A stretch of 64,000 nucleotides of DNA. Source: Flectonema sp. DT1601 (Eukaryota). Position numbers and translations under genes: made by a program. The DNA is taken from assembly GCA_964019425.1 (NCBI GenBank), contig OZ025781.1, positions 248,001-312,000 of the forward strand, read 5' to 3'. Below, in pieces: positions 16,965 through 32,833 of the stretch. The notes under the pieces were generated by a model, which saw only the letters and a program-made list of their open reading frames with translations, had not been told where the DNA came from and did no database searches. How positions within the stretch are numbered: the stretch's first letter is position 1; each line of letters starts with the position of its first letter.

Positions 16965-17220
16965 TCGCTGAGTTAGTAGTTAGTAAGTAAGTAACCGAAT
17001 CCAGAACTGATGACTGAGGTCTGAGTAACCACACACCAGTAGAGGACTCTATCACAGAGATCGTGTTTTCATAGTTTCGGCTGGAAGGATCACTTCCCAG
17101 CTGTCTACTTTGCCCAGAAAATAACGGGTTTGACAAAAACACGAATAAGACATAAATAAAAAAGAATACGACGCAGTCAGTTTTAAGTCTTGACTGCTAC
17201 GAACTTCTCGAGTAACTTTC
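16965..17220 (-). mobile_element. Diverged solo copy of the short structured element
   Basis: Absent from the paralogous spacer at 2430-2470. Shares CAGAACTGATGACT, TTTCATAGT..GGCTGGAAG..ACTTCC.AGC, TTGCCCAGA and CAGTCAGTTT..ACTGC blocks with 29340-29820. Confidence 0.65.
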
Positions 17221-21667: not shown

Positions 21668-22651
21668 ATGATAATCATAATGATAATCATAATGATAATC
21701 ATAATGATAATCATAATGATAATCATAATGATAATCATAATGATAATCATAATGATAATCATAATGATAATCATAATGATAATCATAATGATAATCATAA
21801 TGATAATCATAATGATAATCATAATGATAATCATAATGATAATCATAATGATAATCATAATGATAATCATAATGATAATCATAATGATAATCATAATGAT
21901 AATTATAATGATAATCATAATGATAATCATAATGATAATCATAATGATAATCATAATGATAATCATAATGATAATTATAATGATAATCATAATGATAATC
22001 ATAATGATAATCATAATGATAATTATAATGATAATCATAATGATAATCATAATGATAATCATAATGATAATCATAATGATAAACATAATGATAATCATAA
22101 TGATAATCATAATGATAATCATAATGATAATCATAATGATAATCATAATGATAATCATAATGATAATCATAATGATAATCATAATGATAATCATAATGAT
22201 AAACATAATGATAATCATAATGATAATCATAATGATAATCATAATGATAATCATAATGATAAACATAATGATAATCATAATGATAATCATAATGATAATC
22301 ATAATGATAATCATAATGATAATCATAATGATAATCATAATGATAATCATAATGATAATCATAATGATAATCATAATGATAATCATAATGATAATCATAA
22401 TGATAATCATAATGATAATCATAATGATAATCATAATGATAATCATAATGATAATCATAATGATAATCATAATGATAAACATAATGATAAACATAATGAT
22501 AATCATAATGATAATCATAATGATAATCATAATGATAAACATAATGATAATCATAATGATAATCATAATGATAATCATAATGATAAACATAATGATAATC
22601 ATAATGATAATCATAATGATAATCATAATGATAATCATAATGATAATTATA
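21668..22651. repeat. 12-bp tandem satellite (ATGATAATCATA)n, about 82 units
   Basis: Directly visible, with occasional AATTAT and AAACAT variant units. Confidence 0.99.
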
Positions 22652-22919
22652 ATAACTAATACAATACACCCTATCATTTCTATTCGTTTTTATGAATAGA
22701 AAAACGTAAAAAAGAAAATCAAAGATGATTACACTCGTACATAACTAAAATAATGATAATAAGCAACGTTGTTATATCTGATAATTTGGGGGCTACGTAC
22801 TAAAGATTGAGCTCCCATAAAAAGTGAAGAGAGGGTGAAATCGCACATTGTAGTTTTTACACACAACTACAACTGTAATAGAGAATAAAAATAAAATACG
22901 AAAATGAAACACAAAAAGA

Positions 22920-25397: not shown

Positions 25398-25882
25398 TTT
25401 ATTTAGAAAACTGATGATGAGAAGTTGTGGATTCATCGTATTGACTGGATGGGTAACTATTTGTGGTATCGACTTAGTACGAATATCTGTGTTGATGTCC
25501 TGGAAAAGAAAAGTATCAATCAATTTAGTGACTAACATTAAAAAACCAACACAGCCCAGCAGGTAGCTGTCGGGATAACGGAGTTAGTTGTTCAACGCCT
25601 GGGCTCCCTGTTGAGGGAGGAAAGACAAGAAGAGGATTACAGTAATGTTTATTTTATATTTTTTTCAAATATTATTGACATAAAGGGATTCTTCTTGTCT
25701 AGTCAGTTTCAGAGAAGACGATGACAGGATACTCAACTGAATTATTCTATTCGTCGAAAGACCCTTTGAAAATATATATTTCCCAGAATGAATTAATATG
25801 AACAATAAAATAAAGTAAGATGTTCAATACAATAAGCCGAAGAGAGCAGATGGAAGTAACTTATATTTTCTTGCCGTGGTAC

Positions 25883-25944
25883 TAGTTAGTATCATTAATT
25901 TTAGAACAGAAAAGTGAGAATAAGAAAAGTAGAGATTAATAAAA
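25883..25944 (-). mobile_element. ~60-bp 3'-terminal remnant of the Penelope-like element
   Basis: TAGTTAGTATCATTAATTTTAGAACAGAAAAGTGAGAATAAGAAAAGTAGAGAT matches 26282-26335. Confidence 0.8.
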
Positions 25945-26261
25945 GGAAATAAAAAAGGAAATTCAACAACTGACTTTCCTGCACCACAAAAGAACACAAT
26001 ATCCATACAACAGTTGCCAAACAAGTCAAAATTTTCAAACGACTAAACATAAGAAACGCTGATACCTGTTCGAAGATATCAGGGGAGGGGTGACTCTGAT
26101 GGCAACATTGATGGGAAACAAAAAGGTCGAATCACAAAAAATAATGAAGTTTGGTTTTATTTAGTCAAGTTGTGATAACATGAAATGCGAAGAAATCCGA
26201 ATTTCATTTTCATTTTCGACATCACAACGGATAGTTACCATTCCCAACCCCCACTACCATT

Positions 26262-26757
26262 TTTTTTATTTATTTATTTATTAGTTAGTATCATTAATTT
26301 TAGAACAGAAAAGTGAGAATAAGAAAAGTAGAGATCAATAAAAGAAAAGTATTCATTTCTGCAGTTTCCTAACATCAAAGGGTAATAGAATATGTAGTTT
26401 CAGGCCTTAATCTTATACTACTTGTCCCTTTTTAGGCCTTCATCAGTAAGTTCTAAGGGACTTCATTCTATGTTGAAGTTGTTATCGTTCAAAGATAAAA
26501 ATCCATCGGAGCTCGCCAGGATAGGGCTAGCAATGTTTATTTGCTTTTGCTCAATTTGAATTTTTGACGTCTGGTCGTTTCACTATTACAGTCGAGTTAA
26601 TGGATGAGTCGTCATCCAATTTCCGTTTTACTTTATCATCGCATACCATCAAAGGTCCTATATTCGCAGGTGTCATTGTAACATCCATATCAGTCTGAGC
26701 TTTTAATGGTATCATATGGAAACTATATTCTGTAGTTGCCATGTTAAGTACTTGTAG
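26262..26757 (-). mobile_element. Second, short 3' unit of the same retroelement (pseudo-LTR-like) with a 219-nt internal deletion and (TAAA)n/A tail
   Basis: Near-identical to 26758-27222, joined to 20 nt matching 27442-27461. Confidence 0.88.
26385..26471 (-). ncRNA. Second copy of the hammerhead-like motif
   Basis: Identical to 26870-26956. Confidence 0.55.
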
Positions 26758-26869
26758 ATTATTTATTAGTTAGTATCATTAATTTTAGAACAGAAAAGTG
26801 AGAATAAGAAAAGTAGAGATCAATAAAAGAAAAGTATTCATTTCTGCAGTTTCCTAACATCAAAGGGTA

Positions 26870-26956
26870 ATAGAATATGTAGTTTCAGGCCTTAATCTTA
26901 TACTACTTGTCCCTTTTTAGGCCTTCATCAGTAAGTTCTAAGGGACTTCATTCTAT
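26870..26956 (-). ncRNA. Hammerhead ribozyme-like motif in the retroelement 3' UTR
   Basis: Minus strand reads GUC...CUGAUGA-AGGCCU...AGGCCU-GAAAC, with a plausible stem III (AUAGAAUGAAGU / ACUACAUAUUCUAU). Stem I is not canonical. Confidence 0.55.
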
Positions 26957-27035
26957 GTTGAAGTTGTTATCGTTCAAAGATAAAAATCCATCGGAGCTCG
27001 CCAGGATAGGGCTAGCAATGTTTATTTGCTTTTGC

Positions 27036-29321
27036 TCAATTTGAATTTTTGACATCTGATCGTTTCACTATTACAGTCGAGTTAATGGATGAGTCGTCAT
27101 CCAATTTCCGTTTTACTTTATCTTCGCATATCATCAAAGGTCCTATATTCGCTGGTGTCATCGTAACATCCATATCAGTCTGAGCTTTTAATGGTATCAT
27201 ATGGAAACTATACTCTGTAGTTCGGTACATCTTGTCAAAATGATCGAAAGGGAGTCTTAAATCTTTTGTGCCTTTAAGAATGTCTCGGATGATCATGGAC
27301 TCAAATGAGACTAGCGCAACAATAAAGCGAGTCATCCTTGTTTTCGCTTTATGTAGAATAAGTGCTGCGGCTGCTTCAGGATAATCGAAATCTGCTGGGT
27401 TAACGAAGTACTCGATTCTCCTGTTGAATTTAGTCATGCAAGCCATGTTAAGTACTTGTAGCGAGAACCAACCATCTGGTGATGGTTTATGCTCTGAGTT
27501 GTTCGGTTCTACTTTAAGAGATTCTTCATAAAATCGCTGTTGGTAGTTTTGCAGAAAACTGAAGTTAATTCTATCGATATATAAATGATCTGCAATGAAG
27601 TTGAGCGCTGCCCATCCGCATTCTCCACCGAGAAGACCTTCTCCTGATGTTTGATGTAGGGATGGTGGAAATCGTTTATCCAAGGAATGGCTTGTAGAGC
27701 CCGTATGGTTAATTGTATCCTTTTCGATGCTTAATGGGACTTTGTGACTAAACTTCTCAAAAGTAAGGTTGAGACGTCGACGCATTGCAGCTGCTGTATT
27801 ACCATCATCAATGTGAGAGCTAATGAAGCGGAGGCATGCTGCTCTGATATTGTCAGATTTATAGCCCCGGTTGAGTAATCTATAAGTTACCGCTTCAAGT
27901 TCCTGTAAAAAGTCTGCCTGGTTGTTGCAGATTTTTAGAGCTCGTAAGATCATGGTGGTAAAGATACCTGAACCCATTGATTCTTGAGCTGCGGAATGCT
28001 GATGGGTAAACCTTGTTGGCGTAATATGCCAACCCCTGGCTTTGTCATTAACACTTAAACGAATCCATCGTTTATTTGTGTTAGTGATCTCTATTCGGAT
28101 ACGAATTCCTATATAAGAGACATCATCAATGTTATTCGAAGTATCAGTGTAATCCATTGAATATAGACTTGCTGGTGGAGGGTCGCAACTCCAGGTGAGG
28201 AAGTCGTCGATGTATCTACACGAGTGGTCATGTTGCCGAGCTAAGTCTAGATTTTTTGTTTCAATTAAAGAATCGATATATGCGGATTCAACTCTATAGC
28301 AGTAGAGATTTGCTATATCGCTACTGGCGTTGCCACCCATTGGAATGCCTATTGTTTGTCTCCAAATATAACCTCTTAATGCAATAAAGGAGGAGTCAAT
28401 ACAGAATTCAAGTAATTTTTGACATTCTGCAAGCGCAAGAGAAGGGAATCGTGTAGGGTCACTCGATTCAAGACGTAAGATATTTTTGAAACTAAAGGCT
28501 TCTTGCAGTGCTTCACTTACTTTAGTTTTAATAGCGTTGTGTGGTAGGCGGGTGTACATTGTTGTAAAATCAAAAGTCTTAGGGGATAATTTTTTCAAAA
28601 CCATCAAATTCTGTTTAATCGAACTAGAGACTTCATCATCTGATTCCACAATCCAGTATCGTTTGAACCGTGAATGCATATCTTTCTCTTTCAATATAGT
28701 CATCGCATTTTTAAGGATACTAGAGAGATGTTGGTGCGCATATGTTGTTGCTGTTGCAGGTGCAAGATTATGATCCTTATCGTATTGTCGTTGTTCCGCT
28801 GTACCCGTGAAGGATGAGACACCAGTAATCCATCTCATCCCGATAGCTGATTTGTGTAATTTAATCATTCCATATAGGTGTGGGAGTCGATCAGAATGGC
28901 GGGCATTGATTGAAATGTTCATGTTCTTGAGGTTGGCTAGTAGAGTTGGTTCGTCTGATGTGATGCGTTCATAAGAATCACTTTGTAGCTGCTCTCGAAG
29001 TAAAAGCAAATAATTTATTTTACACATGTAACCAATATCGTGCTGTCCTTTGTCAACTTTAAGAAACACAAACTGAGATTGAAGATTCTGAAGTTCAGTC
29101 CATGCTTTATTTGATAATGGTGAGTCAAGAAAGCTTAAGTCTTTACTTAATTTAAGCTGCAATTGTTTAAGAATTGTGTTTTTAAAGATCGATTTAAAGT
29201 TATCGCCAACGTTCTTGTATGCGTGAGTTATATATTCAGTAATATCATTTTCAAGTGATTCTAATGCAGCTGATGGGTGCACTGGGACTCTAAATTTTTG
29301 ACCTCGTGCGACCTCGTTCAA
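27036..29321 (-). CDS. Penelope-like element reverse transcriptase (Naiad/Chlamys-type motifs), 5'-truncated, with C-terminal Josephin-like domain
   Basis: PHLYGMIKLHK..MRWI, TFDFTTMYTRLPH, QTIGIPMGGNAS, CRYIDD and a thumb region ending LLNRGY. The ORF opens on TTG directly at a junction, and no endonuclease is visible. Confidence 0.9.
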   Translation of the reverse strand: MNEVARGQKFRVPVHPSAALESLENDITEYITHAYKNVGDNFKSIFKNTILKQLQLKLSKDLSFLDSPLSNKAWTELQNLQSQFVFLKVDKGQHDIGYMCKINYLLLLREQLQSDSYERITSDEPTLLANLKNMNISINARHSDRLPHLYGMIKLHKSAIGMRWITGVSSFTGTAEQRQYDKDHNLAPATATTYAHQHLSSILKNAMTILKEKDMHSRFKRYWIVESDDEVSSSIKQNLMVLKKLSPKTFDFTTMYTRLPHNAIKTKVSEALQEAFSFKNILRLESSDPTRFPSLALAECQKLLEFCIDSSFIALRGYIWRQTIGIPMGGNASSDIANLYCYRVESAYIDSLIETKNLDLARQHDHSCRYIDDFLTWSCDPPPASLYSMDYTDTSNNIDDVSYIGIRIRIEITNTNKRWIRLSVNDKARGWHITPTRFTHQHSAAQESMGSGIFTTMILRALKICNNQADFLQELEAVTYRLLNRGYKSDNIRAACLRFISSHIDDGNTAAAMRRRLNLTFEKFSHKVPLSIEKDTINHTGSTSHSLDKRFPPSLHQTSGEGLLGGECGWAALNFIADHLYIDRINFSFLQNYQQRFYEESLKVEPNNSEHKPSPDGWFSLQVLNMACMTKFNRRIEYFVNPADFDYPEAAAALILHKAKTRMTRFIVALVSFESMIIRDILKGTKDLRLPFDHFDKMYRTTEYSFHMIPLKAQTDMDVTMTPANIGPLMICEDKVKRKLDDDSSINSTVIVKRSDVKNSN

Positions 29322-29845
29322 ATTATTTATTAGTTAGTTAGTTATCAAAATACAGAACTGATGACTACGAGGGGTCTGGGTAGCCCGCATCAGTAAGGAC
29401 CCAATCGCGAAGATTGTAGTTTCATAGTATTGGCTGGAAGTGATCGACTTCCAGCTTCCACCTTGCCCAGAGGCTAACAGGTTGTAAACAACTAAAGAAA
29501 ATAAAAGAGAAATGATCTGGGAGTGGGGGGAAGGTGAAAAAAACAAAAAATCTTCTTTCTTTCATATACATCTTTCTTTATAATACGACCACATGTGCCA
29601 TATGCCCACACTCCACGAAAGAAAATAGAAACCCCCGGAACAGTACCGAGGATCGTTCACCCCCAGTTGTCCAAAGCATTATAAGTGTACTGTGGGCTTA
29701 CCGAAAAGCTTTAGAAATGTACCACAAAAGATTTGGGCAGCACATAGCCATATCACTCAGCAAGAAATGAAAACCAAAAGGATCAGGTAAGATGACAGTC
29801 AGTTTAAGGGTCATAACTGCGCCGGACCAACTATTTATTTAAGAT
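29322..29845 (-). mobile_element. Short non-coding structured element, putative non-autonomous partner of the Penelope-like RT
   Basis: Shares the 17-nt 3' terminus with the RT element and is homologous in blocks to 16965-17220. Confidence 0.65.
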
Positions 29846-29860
29846 AACATTTAAGAACAC

Positions 29861-29891
<31 letters not shown>

Positions 29892-30355
29892 CCAATTTCC
29901 TGATAACTGGGACAAAAATCACTAACATAAAAGTCTCTCACCGCAGAGTAAGGGACTACTAAAGAACACAAATCTATCACAAGTGTATATTATTAATAAC
30001 TCCCGTAATGGAGTACAACATATCTTCGTGTTCATCTCACTATTTTTTTCTTTCTTTCAAAAAATGACAATCATAATGATAATTATAATAACTAATACAA
30101 TACACCCTATCATTTCTATTCGTTTTTATGAATAGAAAAACGTAAAAAAGAAAATCAAAGATGATTACAGTCGTGCATAACTAAAATAATGATAATAAGC
30201 AACGTTGTTATATCTGATAATTTGGGGGCTACGTACTAAAGATTGAGCTCCCATAAAAAGTGAAGAGAGGGTGAAATCGCACATTGTAGTTTTTACACAC
30301 AACTACAACTGTAATAGAGAATAAAAATAAAATACGAAAATGAAACACAAAAAGA

Positions 30356-32833
30356 TTAAGCACTGCCGGGACCATTTTCCTCAAGTTCGACGCCTTTCTG
30401 TTCTTCTTCAGATGATGATTTCCTACAACAACACATGTAAACAATAACAATAACAACTATTATGAATACGCCAGAAAATATCGAAATCAGAAGTGTATTG
30501 CGAAGCTTCACATCGCTGTCATCACTGCTGGAGGTACTTGCCCCAGTTGGGGCCGCAGTAGGAGCAGTGGTCGAAACTACAACGGTACCTGGCACCTTGT
30601 AAGTTCCAGCCTCAAATTCCACCCAATTAGTTGAAGCAGTCGAACTGAGTGCAGCAGTTTGCTGAAACATCCGCAACTCTGTTGCAGCTGAGTATGGAGG
30701 CCAGAAAGGAAACACATGATCAGCATAAACAGGAAGAAATTCATCCGAAATAGAAGCGCTCGGATCAGAGAAGAAAGCAGCTAAACTGAATGAAAGCGCG
30801 GCGTTAGTTCTCGTGATTTGAGTCAGTTGCTTGTTTACGTTGTTTTTGGCGGCGGCAGCAACCCAAGTTTTCCACTGGAAAAATGGTGCATTTGTGGTAG
30901 AACTTACTCTGTGCTTTTCCCCAGTAATACCACCAGCAGAGACAACTGTTGCGGCGCTAGCCTCTCTAAGGAGCTTCACAGTTTGTGAACACGCACTTGC
31001 ACATGCTCCGAGTGATAAAACTTTGATGGTTGCGAATCCCTTCGTAGGTTTATTGATTTGCTCATTCGCTGCAAAGGTACACTGAGAGAACGTAGCAGAG
31101 TCCTTCAATTCAAATAATGATTCGAAGAGAGAAGCGACCTTTGGAACCACAAACACTTCAGGTGATCCAGCAGCCCTGCTCTTCTTCGGAGCGTTGTTAA
31201 AGAGATCATTTAATTTAGCCTTCGCCTGCTGCATGTTTGTACTGGCCAAAGGTTCGTTGTTTAAGCTTTCACCGGTAGAAATACGTAACGCGTTGTAGTT
31301 TTCACCACCAACCACAGCAGATTGTATCAAACTGATGTATCCCTTAGTGAAGTCAGTGAGGTGGTATTCAGAAGCACCCTTAGTGGAAGCAGCACTTGCA
31401 GGTGAGATACGGAAATCGCTACTCGTCCTCGATGCGTTCCTGACGCCTGCAGGGTATTGGAGCTTCGGTGTCAAGTACTCAACCGTCATAGCGGACAAGA
31501 TAAGAAATCCACCACCGTTACCACGGACGTCCAGGATCAATTCTGTGATTCTCGGGGAAAACGCAATCGCATAATCATTGCAAGCCTCAATAACTTTTAA
31601 AAACCTGAAGAGGACTTTGATTTCATCACAACCCTGTAAGTTGGCGGTGCTAGGGGAAAAGGTTCCGATGTACAAGTACATTACTGGCTTTGCGTTGGTT
31701 TCGAAAGAGCTGCACACAATATTCGGTTCATTGGTATTTTGTGGATATTGAGCAACTATCTTACCCCGATTCCAGAGATCTGAAGGAGCAAGCTGCTGAA
31801 CTGATCTTTTGGACACGTGTTCCTGTTCCTTCTTTGCAGATGCAGCCTTGTCAGCCTTGTCAGCGTTGTGAAGATCTCTCGCAATGTCTGAAAGTGGATT
31901 AGGAGGAAGGTTAGGTCCGGAGTTCACTTCAGGACTTTTATGAATACCTGCCCTCTGATCAGCGATAGGAGGAATTGGTTTGTATGCCTCTCTGTTCTGC
32001 CTGATGTGAGTAATGTCGTTAGGGGTCACTGGTGCTTCCTGTACCTGAGCACCTCTCGCAGTCGCTGCTGGACGGTTACCAGCAACTATGACAGCGGTTG
32101 TTAACTGTGGTTCTGCTCTTCCAGAGTAGATTGGAAGGGTGTGAGACGTACCAGCAACAGTTATTTGCATTGTGGTGGCCTGGTATCCAGATGAGGTTGA
32201 AGATATACCTGCAGCGTCCAGGTTGTTTAGGTATTGATTAAGGTCTGCACCATTAGACTTCGAAGCACCATTGTCACCAAGCAACTTTGATAAATAGGCC
32301 ACTGCTGGCTGTCCGTTGATTGCAGTTACGACGTTGCCAATTTGAACACTGCTCCACGTCTGTCCCTGAGAATAGGCACTGAAAAGGACATGGCGTTCCC
32401 TGATGAAAATAACCTGCTGTCCATTATCCATACTTGATCCGAGTACAAAAGGAATATGTAAAGTAGAAAGGTATCCCGATGGCAGAGTGTAAGCAGTATG
32501 CCCATCGTGTAACGCTACGAAGAGCCGAGCCATTGAAGTCTGAAATTGGAAATCACTATTCCACTGTTGAGTAGAGAACTGTTGAAGAGAACCCTTCAAG
32601 TTAACCTTTCCAATCACAGATGGGTCTGTTGATAGAGCGATGTCAGTTCCATGGTAAAACTCAACCATCTCAAGCGCTGCTTTTGTCGCTTCCGTCACAG
32701 TTGCTTGATCCACCGGAACAGTGTTGTAACAGTCAAAGATTTCACTAGCTCTGTAGTAGTAAAAATCTCCTACCAGCTGCCCCTGCAAATTACATTGCGA
32801 CACCGCCAGCAGGTTTATCATTGAGAGTAACAT
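30356..32833 (-). CDS. S41-family peptidase paralog 7
   Basis: Same motifs (GACASACS); 3' flank nearly identical to that of paralog 6. Confidence 0.88.
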   Translation of the reverse strand: MLLSMINLLAVSQCNLQGQLVGDFYYYRASEIFDCYNTVPVDQATVTEATKAALEMVEFYHGTDIALSTDPSVIGKVNLKGSLQQFSTQQWNSDFQFQTSMARLFVALHDGHTAYTLPSGYLSTLHIPFVLGSSMDNGQQVIFIRERHVLFSAYSQGQTWSSVQIGNVVTAINGQPAVAYLSKLLGDNGASKSNGADLNQYLNNLDAAGISSTSSGYQATTMQITVAGTSHTLPIYSGRAEPQLTTAVIVAGNRPAATARGAQVQEAPVTPNDITHIRQNREAYKPIPPIADQRAGIHKSPEVNSGPNLPPNPLSDIARDLHNADKADKAASAKKEQEHVSKRSVQQLAPSDLWNRGKIVAQYPQNTNEPNIVCSSFETNAKPVMYLYIGTFSPSTANLQGCDEIKVLFRFLKVIEACNDYAIAFSPRITELILDVRGNGGGFLILSAMTVEYLTPKLQYPAGVRNASRTSSDFRISPASAASTKGASEYHLTDFTKGYISLIQSAVVGGENYNALRISTGESLNNEPLASTNMQQAKAKLNDLFNNAPKKSRAAGSPEVFVVPKVASLFESLFELKDSATFSQCTFAANEQINKPTKGFATIKVLSLGACASACSQTVKLLREASAATVVSAGGITGEKHRVSSTTNAPFFQWKTWVAAAAKNNVNKQLTQITRTNAALSFSLAAFFSDPSASISDEFLPVYADHVFPFWPPYSAATELRMFQQTAALSSTASTNWVEFEAGTYKVPGTVVVSTTAPTAAPTGASTSSSDDSDVKLRNTLLISIFSGVFIIVVIVIVYMCCCRKSSSEEEQKGVELEENGPGSA

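Follow-up and report, generated by a model that had tools for sequence, protein, structure and literature searches.

A Chlamys-type Penelope-like retroelement with a predicted C-terminal Josephin-fold domain and a candidate type-CSG hammerhead in Flectonema sp. DT1601

The window analysed here is a 64,000-nucleotide stretch of Flectonema sp. DT1601 (contig OZ025781.1 of assembly GCA_964019425.1, forward-strand positions 248,001 to 312,000), and it harbours a Penelope-like element (PLE) in which a reverse transcriptase (RT) is followed by a predicted Josephin-fold domain. All features of the element lie on the minus strand, and coordinates are those of the window. Its single open reading frame (ORF), P0001 (27036..29333, 765 aa), is a stop-free, 5'-truncated frame, of which the first 8 residues are read-through from the tail of an upstream repeat and lie outside the element's protein. 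The Penelope-like RT occupies residues 9-510 (27804..29309) and contains VDKG at 93, DFTTMY at 255, IPMGG at 330, YIDD at 374, and the thumb; VDKG (93-96) represents the DK(G) motif that precedes the RT core. Between RT motifs A and B, where Chlamys elements have an insertion-in-fingers domain, the spacing from DFTTMY to IPMGG is 75 residues in P0001, and it is longer in several of the relatives compared. The predicted Josephin-fold (papain-like) domain follows at residues ~554-714 (27192..27674), located by profile-profile comparison, models, and fold match. The protein ends in a poorly conserved tail with a basic KRK patch (residues 715-765, 27039..27191).

The ORF falls in a protein cluster of 59 members; 40 of them were read, and 15 were listed. 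Two of the listed members are full-length (1279 and 1350 aa) and carry, in one ORF and from N- to C-terminus, a GIY-YIG endonuclease, a CxC motif, the RT, and the papain-fold domain. The N-terminal GIY-YIG suspected by the first-pass annotation in the complete element is present, since residues 233-333 of P0014 match a GIY-YIG profile built from 7 Pfam-positive relatives at E=2e-20; Pfam itself gave no GIY-YIG match in P0008 or P0014. The nuclease stretch of P0008 (117 residues) has a single Cys and so neither a CCHH nor a CX2-5CxxC zinc motif. The CxC motif is CNC at P0008 489-491, followed by GH, and it occurs likewise in P0019, P0022, and P0027. Several of the RT relatives have Pfam RVT_1 and N-terminal GIY-YIG matches. 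The Chlamys traits of 5' truncation, partial tandem (pseudo-LTR) ends, and many copies are all present, and it is by this layout, rather than by its place in an RT tree, that the element is assigned to the multi-copy Chlamys-type PLEs. The window copy begins at the position of P0008 residue 523 and lacks the first 522 residues, endonuclease included. Residues 9-765 of P0001 differ from the full-length P0008 at 3 of 757 positions, and the family therefore looks young; the window copy is a young, 5'-truncated copy without endonuclease. No relatives of the element were found in viral contigs or prokaryote genome contigs, and a word-indexed search with residues 545-765 returned only its own cluster. 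One family member, P0037, has lost an internal segment, so that its RT runs straight into the beginning of the Josephin domain.

The C-terminal segment had been proposed from motifs in the interval 27195-27660 (residues ~559-713), and these do occur in order in the RT frame: LHQ, ECGWAALNFI, DGWFSLQVLNMACM, ALILH, TRFIVAL, IIRDILKG, and EYSFHMI. The segment is also present in other copies of the RT family. The strongest sequence evidence comes from comparison with RT relatives whose tails are recognised as Josephin by Pfam. A profile built from tails of the family itself (P0008, P0017, and P0023) matched four such tails at E=9e-5 (score 33.1, against a maximum of 20.7 in 30 column shuffles) and eight such tails at E=2e-5 (score 36.3, against a maximum of 22.75 in 100 column shuffles); in the larger comparison, the Cys, Gly, His, and Asp positions line up. 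The OTU and USP tails scored ~14 against the same profile. Identity to Josephins is 9-17%, which is below Pfam detection. A profile of the alignment termed A3 matches ataxin-3 entries at E=5e-4 to 1e-3, a result that is partly circular and is given little weight.

The predicted structure agrees with the profile match. The model obtained from the A3 alignment has a predicted local distance difference test score (pLDDT) of 82, and its top Foldseek match is ataxin-3 (1yzb, E=9e-5); all 4 matches at E<=0.001 are Josephins, with C39 peptidases at ranks 5 and 9-13. In VIA-align, the same model superimposes on JOSD2 (6pgv) with Z 12.6 (root-mean-square deviation, rmsd, 3.2 over 132 aligned residues) and on the ataxin-3-like Josephin ATXN3L (3o65) with Z 12.2. 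The best non-Josephin match reaches Z 8.8, and C39-type processing peptidases come next to the Josephins at Z 8.6-8.8. A model built from the own family alone (5 rows) is poor (pLDDT 53). Josephins stand at Foldseek ranks 1, 2, 4, 6, and 7 for this model, and of the 48,161 chains compared with it, 3o65 alone reaches Z>=5 (Z 5.3, rmsd 5.2, 117 aligned). The claim of a Penelope-like RT with a C-terminal Josephin-fold domain is thus upheld by the RT motifs, the profile match at E=2e-5, and the predicted fold at Z 12.6. With the points set out next taken into account, there is high confidence, on profiles and models, that the C-terminal segment is a divergent Josephin-fold domain.

Several results weigh against this assignment or against a canonical activity. 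The direct check with Pfam PF02099, which had been advised together with Foldseek, gave no match, as opposed to the Foldseek half, in which the Josephins came first for the A3 model. PF02099 was not matched at E<=10 by P0001 or by the domain alone, nor at E<=0.1 by P0002, P0008, P0014, P0017, P0018, or P0023. No Josephin was found among PDB sequences by phmmer with the window protein or domain, or by the own-family profile. The ESM Atlas gave no usable match for the window domain, and for the P0017 domain it gave only sub-threshold C39/YopQ leads at 0.76-0.77, scores under 0.8 being at chance level. The A3 alignment includes 8 Josephin-positive rows, so that its model is biased toward a Josephin fold and the match is partly circular. 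The own-family model has no Foldseek match at E<=0.001, and its Z of 5.3 falls in the range of mere fold resemblance. The oxyanion Gln is out of register, which speaks against a canonical activity: P0001 has Leu at -5 from the Cys, the Gln of P0001 and P0017 stands at -11, P0018 and P0023 have none, and this segment has pLDDT <50 in the A3 model. The synonymous excess in the domain described below comes from a partial list, and the difference between domain and tail is not significant (Fisher p=0.21).

The conservation of the domain was assessed at two distances. Against P0017, the domain is identical at 103/161 positions (64%), the RT at 216/300 (72%), and the tail at 21/51 (41%). A closer copy is provided by a 709-letter contig from run X2, which has 46 differences to the window copy; the available list is partial, with 29 of the 46 visible and 26 of those inside the ORF. 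Among the codon differences listed, 7 of 10 in the domain and 5 of 14 in the tail are synonymous. Runs X2 and X3 hold small shares of the element's words only, and give no information on habitat or expression.

In ataxin-3, C14, H119, and N134 are catalytic and Q9, five residues before the Cys, forms the oxyanion hole, according to the relevant part of PMC4754714. The predicted counterparts in the window protein are the nucleophile Cys572 (27618..27620), invariant in all 12 A3 rows, Arg669 (27327..27329) at the position of the catalytic His, and Asp684 (27282..27284) as third residue of the triad. Across the A3 rows, Cys is found in 12/12, His in 11/12, and Asp in 11/12, and these map on C14, H119, and N134, respectively; Asp684 lies 15 residues after the His position, a spacing equal to that of H119-N134. 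The motif TRFIVAL is present as the first-pass annotation stated, but its Arg in the place of the catalytic His had been overlooked. At site 669, His is present in 9 of the 10 listed cluster members that span it, as well as in P0017 and P0023, and the X2 contig carries a His codon there. The full-length P0008, in which the domain covers residues ~1068-1228, also has the His. The tenth listed member, P0006, is identical to the window protein over 757 residues and is likely the window copy itself. Among these sequences, the His-to-Arg change is private to the window copy. The predicted Cys-His-Asn/Asp triad is therefore complete in intact family copies and broken by Arg669 in the window copy, which is probably catalytically dead since the predicted catalytic His has been replaced.

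Josephin, USP, OTU, and ULP1 are distinct papain-fold families that remove ubiquitin or ubiquitin-like tags. All four are among the protease families listed in the section of PMC10318531 that deals with them. A search with the RT alone, leaving out the tail, returned 16 proteins, and of the 15 outside the cluster, 8 have a Pfam-recognised protease tail (5 Josephin, 2 USP, and 1 OTU) and a further 3 carry a Josephin of the window family's type. The same kind of search over 1.84 billion representatives gave 2077 matches at E<=0.001. The 150 matches listed comprise 146 new identifiers, of which 44 have tails of at least 110 residues; 14 of these long tails match Pfam after the RT at E<=0.02 (5 Josephin, 7 USP, 1 OTU, and 1 ULP1, the last in P0063). 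Moreover, one of 19 loci with DNA, the metagenomic locus L011, joins an RT to a ULP-type domain within a single frame (XopD E=2e-6, Ulp1 E=0.06); it was left out of the RT tree.

The RT tree (LG+G4) was built from 38 rows, namely 34 labelled rows and 4 short-tailed outgroup rows, and the other 93 of the 131 usable rows were included in a FastTree run. The window family falls in a 9-row clade (support 97/95) with 4 Josephin, 3 USP, and 2 OTU tails, and within it P0023 carries an own-type Josephin, yet its RT is sister to the OTU pair (97/84). In approximately unbiased (AU) tests, a single Josephin clade was rejected for 17 rows (p=2e-81) and for the 14 better-supported rows (p=1e-12), and one clade of the 11 USP bearers was rejected at p=0.006; for the 4 own-type rows, one clade was likewise rejected, though mildly (p=0.019). 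When 24 strictly labelled rows are considered, 5 changes are required against a possible minimum of 3, and a looser count of 8 changes includes labels lacking confirmation. The RT tree does not separate gains from losses. The interleaving of labels on the RT tree suggests, at the level of sequence, that the position has been repeatedly exchanged under selection for ubiquitin-type isopeptidase activity.

Against so general a slot stand three observations. No such Pfam match was found in 30 of the 44 long tails among the listed matches. Tails shorter than 110 residues, some of them in fragments, were found in 74 of the 131 tree rows, and the tail is thus dispensable in the wider group; 60 short-tailed rows cluster apart from every protease bearer in the FastTree run. 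For most relatives, the protein is a prediction lacking DNA context, and chimeric gene models occur among them, as in P0032, which carries a kinesin. Several tails also keep provisional labels. Neither the labelling of the P0050 and P0058 tails as ULP-like nor that of P0023 340-510 as an OTU remnant is supported by hhalign. The Josephin-like group P0040/P0075/P0165/L001/L009 has no Pfam or PDB match and its label is unconfirmed; its Cys, His, and Asp are invariant in 4 rows, and it matches the Pfam-positive group at E~6e-4. The OTU-like tails of L002, L003, and L007 were recognised from motifs by eye and are likewise unconfirmed, with no Pfam or PDB match. Other features of the tails were observed in passing. 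P0076 is an RT relative with a weak OTU match and a C-terminal DnaJ domain. Many tails, including those of P0021, P0022, P0028, P0060, and L004:77-2647, end in a C2H2/C2HC-like zinc finger; L004 has weak Pfam zf-C2H2 matches, and this finger, absent from the window family, is possibly the Cys/His motif of the Chara elements.

The first-pass annotation had taken a Josephin domain in PLEs as new, but Josephin-tailed cases are already on record. Section 9 and File S1 of Craig et al. 2021 (PMC8557442) describe a Josephin extension at the C-terminus of three Chara braunii families, Chlamys-1, -4, and -6. As far as that description goes, Chlamys-1_cBra, -4_cBra, and -6_cBra resemble the window family in having an N-terminal GIY-YIG without CCHH, a CxC motif, and the RT, and in a C-terminal extension weakly homologous to Josephin, as well as in 5' truncation and partial tandem ends (PMC8557442). 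On the other hand, the ORF of the window family is 1279-1350 aa long compared with ~1800 in the Chara elements (PMC8557442), and in the window family the Josephin follows the RT thumb via a short linker, with no second Cys/His-rich motif. The Chara Josephins were compared by their published description, which does not imply a common origin with that of the window family. The intronless one-strand gene arrays of the window would also be unlike a streptophyte alga, in contrast to the Chara host.

In the main text of Craig et al. 2021, figures aside, there are no matches for 'ubiquitin', 'OTU', or 'peptidase' (PMC8557442), and the searchable portion of its supplement has none for OTU, ubiquitin, Ulp1, or UCH. 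The available portions of PMC11167929 and 10.64898/2026.07.22.740005 contain nothing on a PLE protease slot, and no published PLE with OTU, ULP1, or USP was found in a literature that included few subscription papers. The Josephin-tailed Chlamys layout is thus known, whereas the alternation of Josephin, USP, OTU, and ULP1 in one slot was not found in print. Dualen/RandI LINEs (Kojima and Fujiwara 2005, as cited in PMC8557442, 10.64898/2026.06.17.732966) likewise combine a retroelement polyprotein with a Josephin-like cysteine protease, which is proposed in the cited passages to disrupt protein degradation. Their RT is of LINE type and their Josephin is N-terminal, in contrast to the C-terminal one of the window element (10.64898/2026.06.17.732966). 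The same 2026 preprint, in the text available, notes both Josephin and OTU on LINE ORF2 proteins (10.64898/2026.06.17.732966). Among Josephin deubiquitinases, ataxin-3 (1yzb), ATXN3L (3o65), and JOSD2 (6pgv) share the predicted fold, the Cys-His-Asp/Asn order, and the His-Asp spacing, and the bacterial PcJOS/BpJOS give a fold match of Z 9.2. The window domain differs from them in being fused to an RT, in its identity of 9-17%, in its out-of-register oxyanion Gln, and in the missing His of this copy.

Downstream of the ORF, the 3' untranslated region (UTR) extends over 26759..27035 and has an A/T-rich tail at its end. It contains a candidate hammerhead ribozyme with the block order C-S-G (26870..26956), of which a second copy lies at 26385-26471. 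The core consists of CUGAUGA (26931-26925) and GAAA (26886-26883), with a predicted cut after 26901 and all core nucleotides present. Stem I (26935-26932/26900-26897), stem II (26924-26919/26892-26887), and stem III (26906-26903/26882-26879) have 4, 6, and 4 bp, respectively, and two further 7-bp helices are compatible with them (26956-26950/26876-26870 and 26946-26940/26915-26909). The motif is put forward on this sequence pattern as a candidate non-circularly permuted (pseudoknotted) type-CSG hammerhead. These two are the only complete cores on either strand of the window, and a scan of all six block orders gives the CSG order alone. Among 5000 dinucleotide shuffles of the UTR, one gave any complete core; because the scan was written only after the hammerhead had been spotted by eye, the shuffle rate overstates the evidence somewhat. 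The minimum-energy fold shows the hammerhead only in part. The two copies are identical in their stems, and none of 19 distant loci has the core in a strict scan. Rfam gave no match in 25600-30400 and hence no canonical hammerhead, as in most Chlamys families. Since stem II is palindromic, a dimer between the tandem copies would be possible.

Other placements of the motif were rejected. A type III reading allows no stem I after the upstream GUC, by inspection, and cores in L011 and L013 were seen under loose settings only and disappeared in the strict scan. Natural type-CSG ribozymes have been validated in two cases, each of metagenomic origin (Eckert et al. 2023, PMC10085705). In that description, CSG-1 and CSG-2 share with the candidate the C-S-G order, the core, stems I-III, and an extra helix possibly joining stems I and II (PMC10085705). 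Unlike them, the candidate comes from a eukaryotic retroelement, in whose 3' UTR it sits, and it would add such a case to a permutation described from two sequences.

The 3' end is followed by a partial tandem copy of itself (26274..26757), a pseudo-LTR-like arrangement in which 464 bp are 98.5% identical to 26759-27222. This copy is headed by 20 bp matching 27442-27461, which resembles a template jump. The 219-bp gap between its two matching parts was considered as a spliced intron and rejected, since the ends are not GT-AG. The short and long tandem copies differ at 7 positions, and because 5 of the 7 differing letters in the short copy agree with the X2 contig, it likely stems from a different template. 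At 25880..25949 there is also a 70-bp piece from the very 3' end of the element (family D2, 96% identity). Directly upstream of the element, at 29325..29800 with approximate boundaries, there is a separate repeat, whose 3' tail is similarly A/T-rich and of which a 76% copy lies at 16973-17130. It is joined to the 3' part of the element in the X2 and X3 contigs and stands in tandem in X1. The repeat has hammerhead-like words, and a hammerhead in it was rejected as no complete core is present. It is possibly a non-autonomous partner of the element.

All 14 non-repeat ORFs of at least 300 aa in the window are long uninterrupted frames on the minus strand, which suggests a protist genome with polycistronic gene arrays. 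The region 3-32893 of the minus strand holds seven tandem paralogues of a 775-912 aa ORF, and the element lies between two of them. The one paralogue scanned has weak matches to S41 peptidase and CPAF-like PDZ domains and a C-terminal membrane-helix-like segment. A minisatellite of ~1 kb with a 12-bp unit (~21670-22690) gives long spurious ORFs on both strands.

As to function, every step beyond the fold prediction is inferred. The reading preferred here, in which confidence and doubt are held in equal measure, is that intact copies carry a tethered deubiquitinase that would shield the element's own endonuclease-RT particle from destruction. The domain would be catalytically active in the His-bearing copies and would cleave ubiquitin or a ubiquitin-like tag, because that activity is common to all four exchanged families. 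The element's own protein, or its RNA-protein particle, would be the main substrate, since the enzyme is not free and a fused enzyme acts first on its fusion partner. Its repeated replacement may reflect pressure from host ubiquitin-based control: four families alternate in one position, and selection for their shared activity is therefore the simplest explanation.

The same fold and exchange data would also fit an active ubiquitin or ubiquitin-like isopeptidase directed at host proteins, either where the element inserts or on the ribosome that translates it, such as ubiquitinated histones, repair factors, or ribosome quality-control marks. Fusion to a nuclease-RT would bring such an enzyme to the target DNA, and the ULP-type tails of P0063 and L011 imply SUMO/NEDD8-type tags. 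Tags of this kind more typically serve nuclear regulation than mark proteins for the proteasome. The 2026 preprint, in its available text, links ribosome stalling with the Josephin and OTU domains that LINE ORF2 proteins carry (10.64898/2026.06.17.732966). The host substrate is likewise assigned by inference and many relatives lack such a tail, and host targeting is regarded as rather unlikely. Quite improbable is a polyprotein-processing protease that frees itself or the endonuclease from the RT: papain-fold and OTU proteases do process viral polyproteins, the full ORF is long (1279-1350 aa), and C39-type processing peptidases follow the Josephins in the fold comparison (Z 8.6-8.8), but Gly-Gly occurs in only 3 of 26 RT-to-protease linkers and in none of P0001, P0017, and P0018, where the linkers alone were screened. 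A processing enzyme would moreover require a new matching site at each exchange between unrelated protease families, and ubiquitin removal appears to fit the domain-swap pattern better.

A captured passenger or a non-catalytic ubiquitin-binding module, in which catalysis is not selected, would account for the Arg in the window copy and for the non-conserved oxyanion Gln, and the relevant sections of PMC8557442 show that PLEs carry varied accessory domains. It is judged very improbable, as Cys, His, and Asp persist across RTs that are ~25% identical, the Arg is private to one copy, the conservation of the domain nearly equals that of the RT, and random capture would not repeatedly give ubiquitin-type proteases. 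The least probable of the alternatives is a papain fold of non-Josephin type (for example C39-like) with a different specificity. The Atlas YopQ/C39 leads (0.76-0.77), the C39 peptidases at Foldseek ranks 5 and 9-13, and the low identity to Josephins point that way; however, the Josephins are ahead by more than 3 Z units and first-ranked even with the own-family model, the profile match to Pfam-Josephin tails reaches E=2e-5, and the Atlas scores are at chance level.

The tethered deubiquitinase can be set in a wider picture, offered tentatively and with somewhat more doubt than belief. A broad protist Chlamys sub-clade would have a C-terminal 'anti-ubiquitin slot' that is refilled time and again by the unrelated Josephin, USP, OTU, or ULP1, including by exchange between co-existing families, and the window family would in addition use a type-CSG pseudoknotted hammerhead for RNA processing. 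If this is true, the CSG hammerhead would help explain the apparent lack of ribozymes in Chlamys elements. A lone Josephin-tailed PLE has already been published and carries little functional information. Four unrelated ubiquitin or ubiquitin-like protease families at one position of one RT lineage are, by comparison, a natural experiment, which implies selection on their shared activity and points to ubiquitin as a means of host control, as for viruses. The family looks young and intact ORFs therefore exist, for which the Arg-bearing window copy is a natural negative control. If the slot does act as proposed, ubiquitin-dependent destruction of the retrotransposition particle would be an unrecognised host defence against PLEs.

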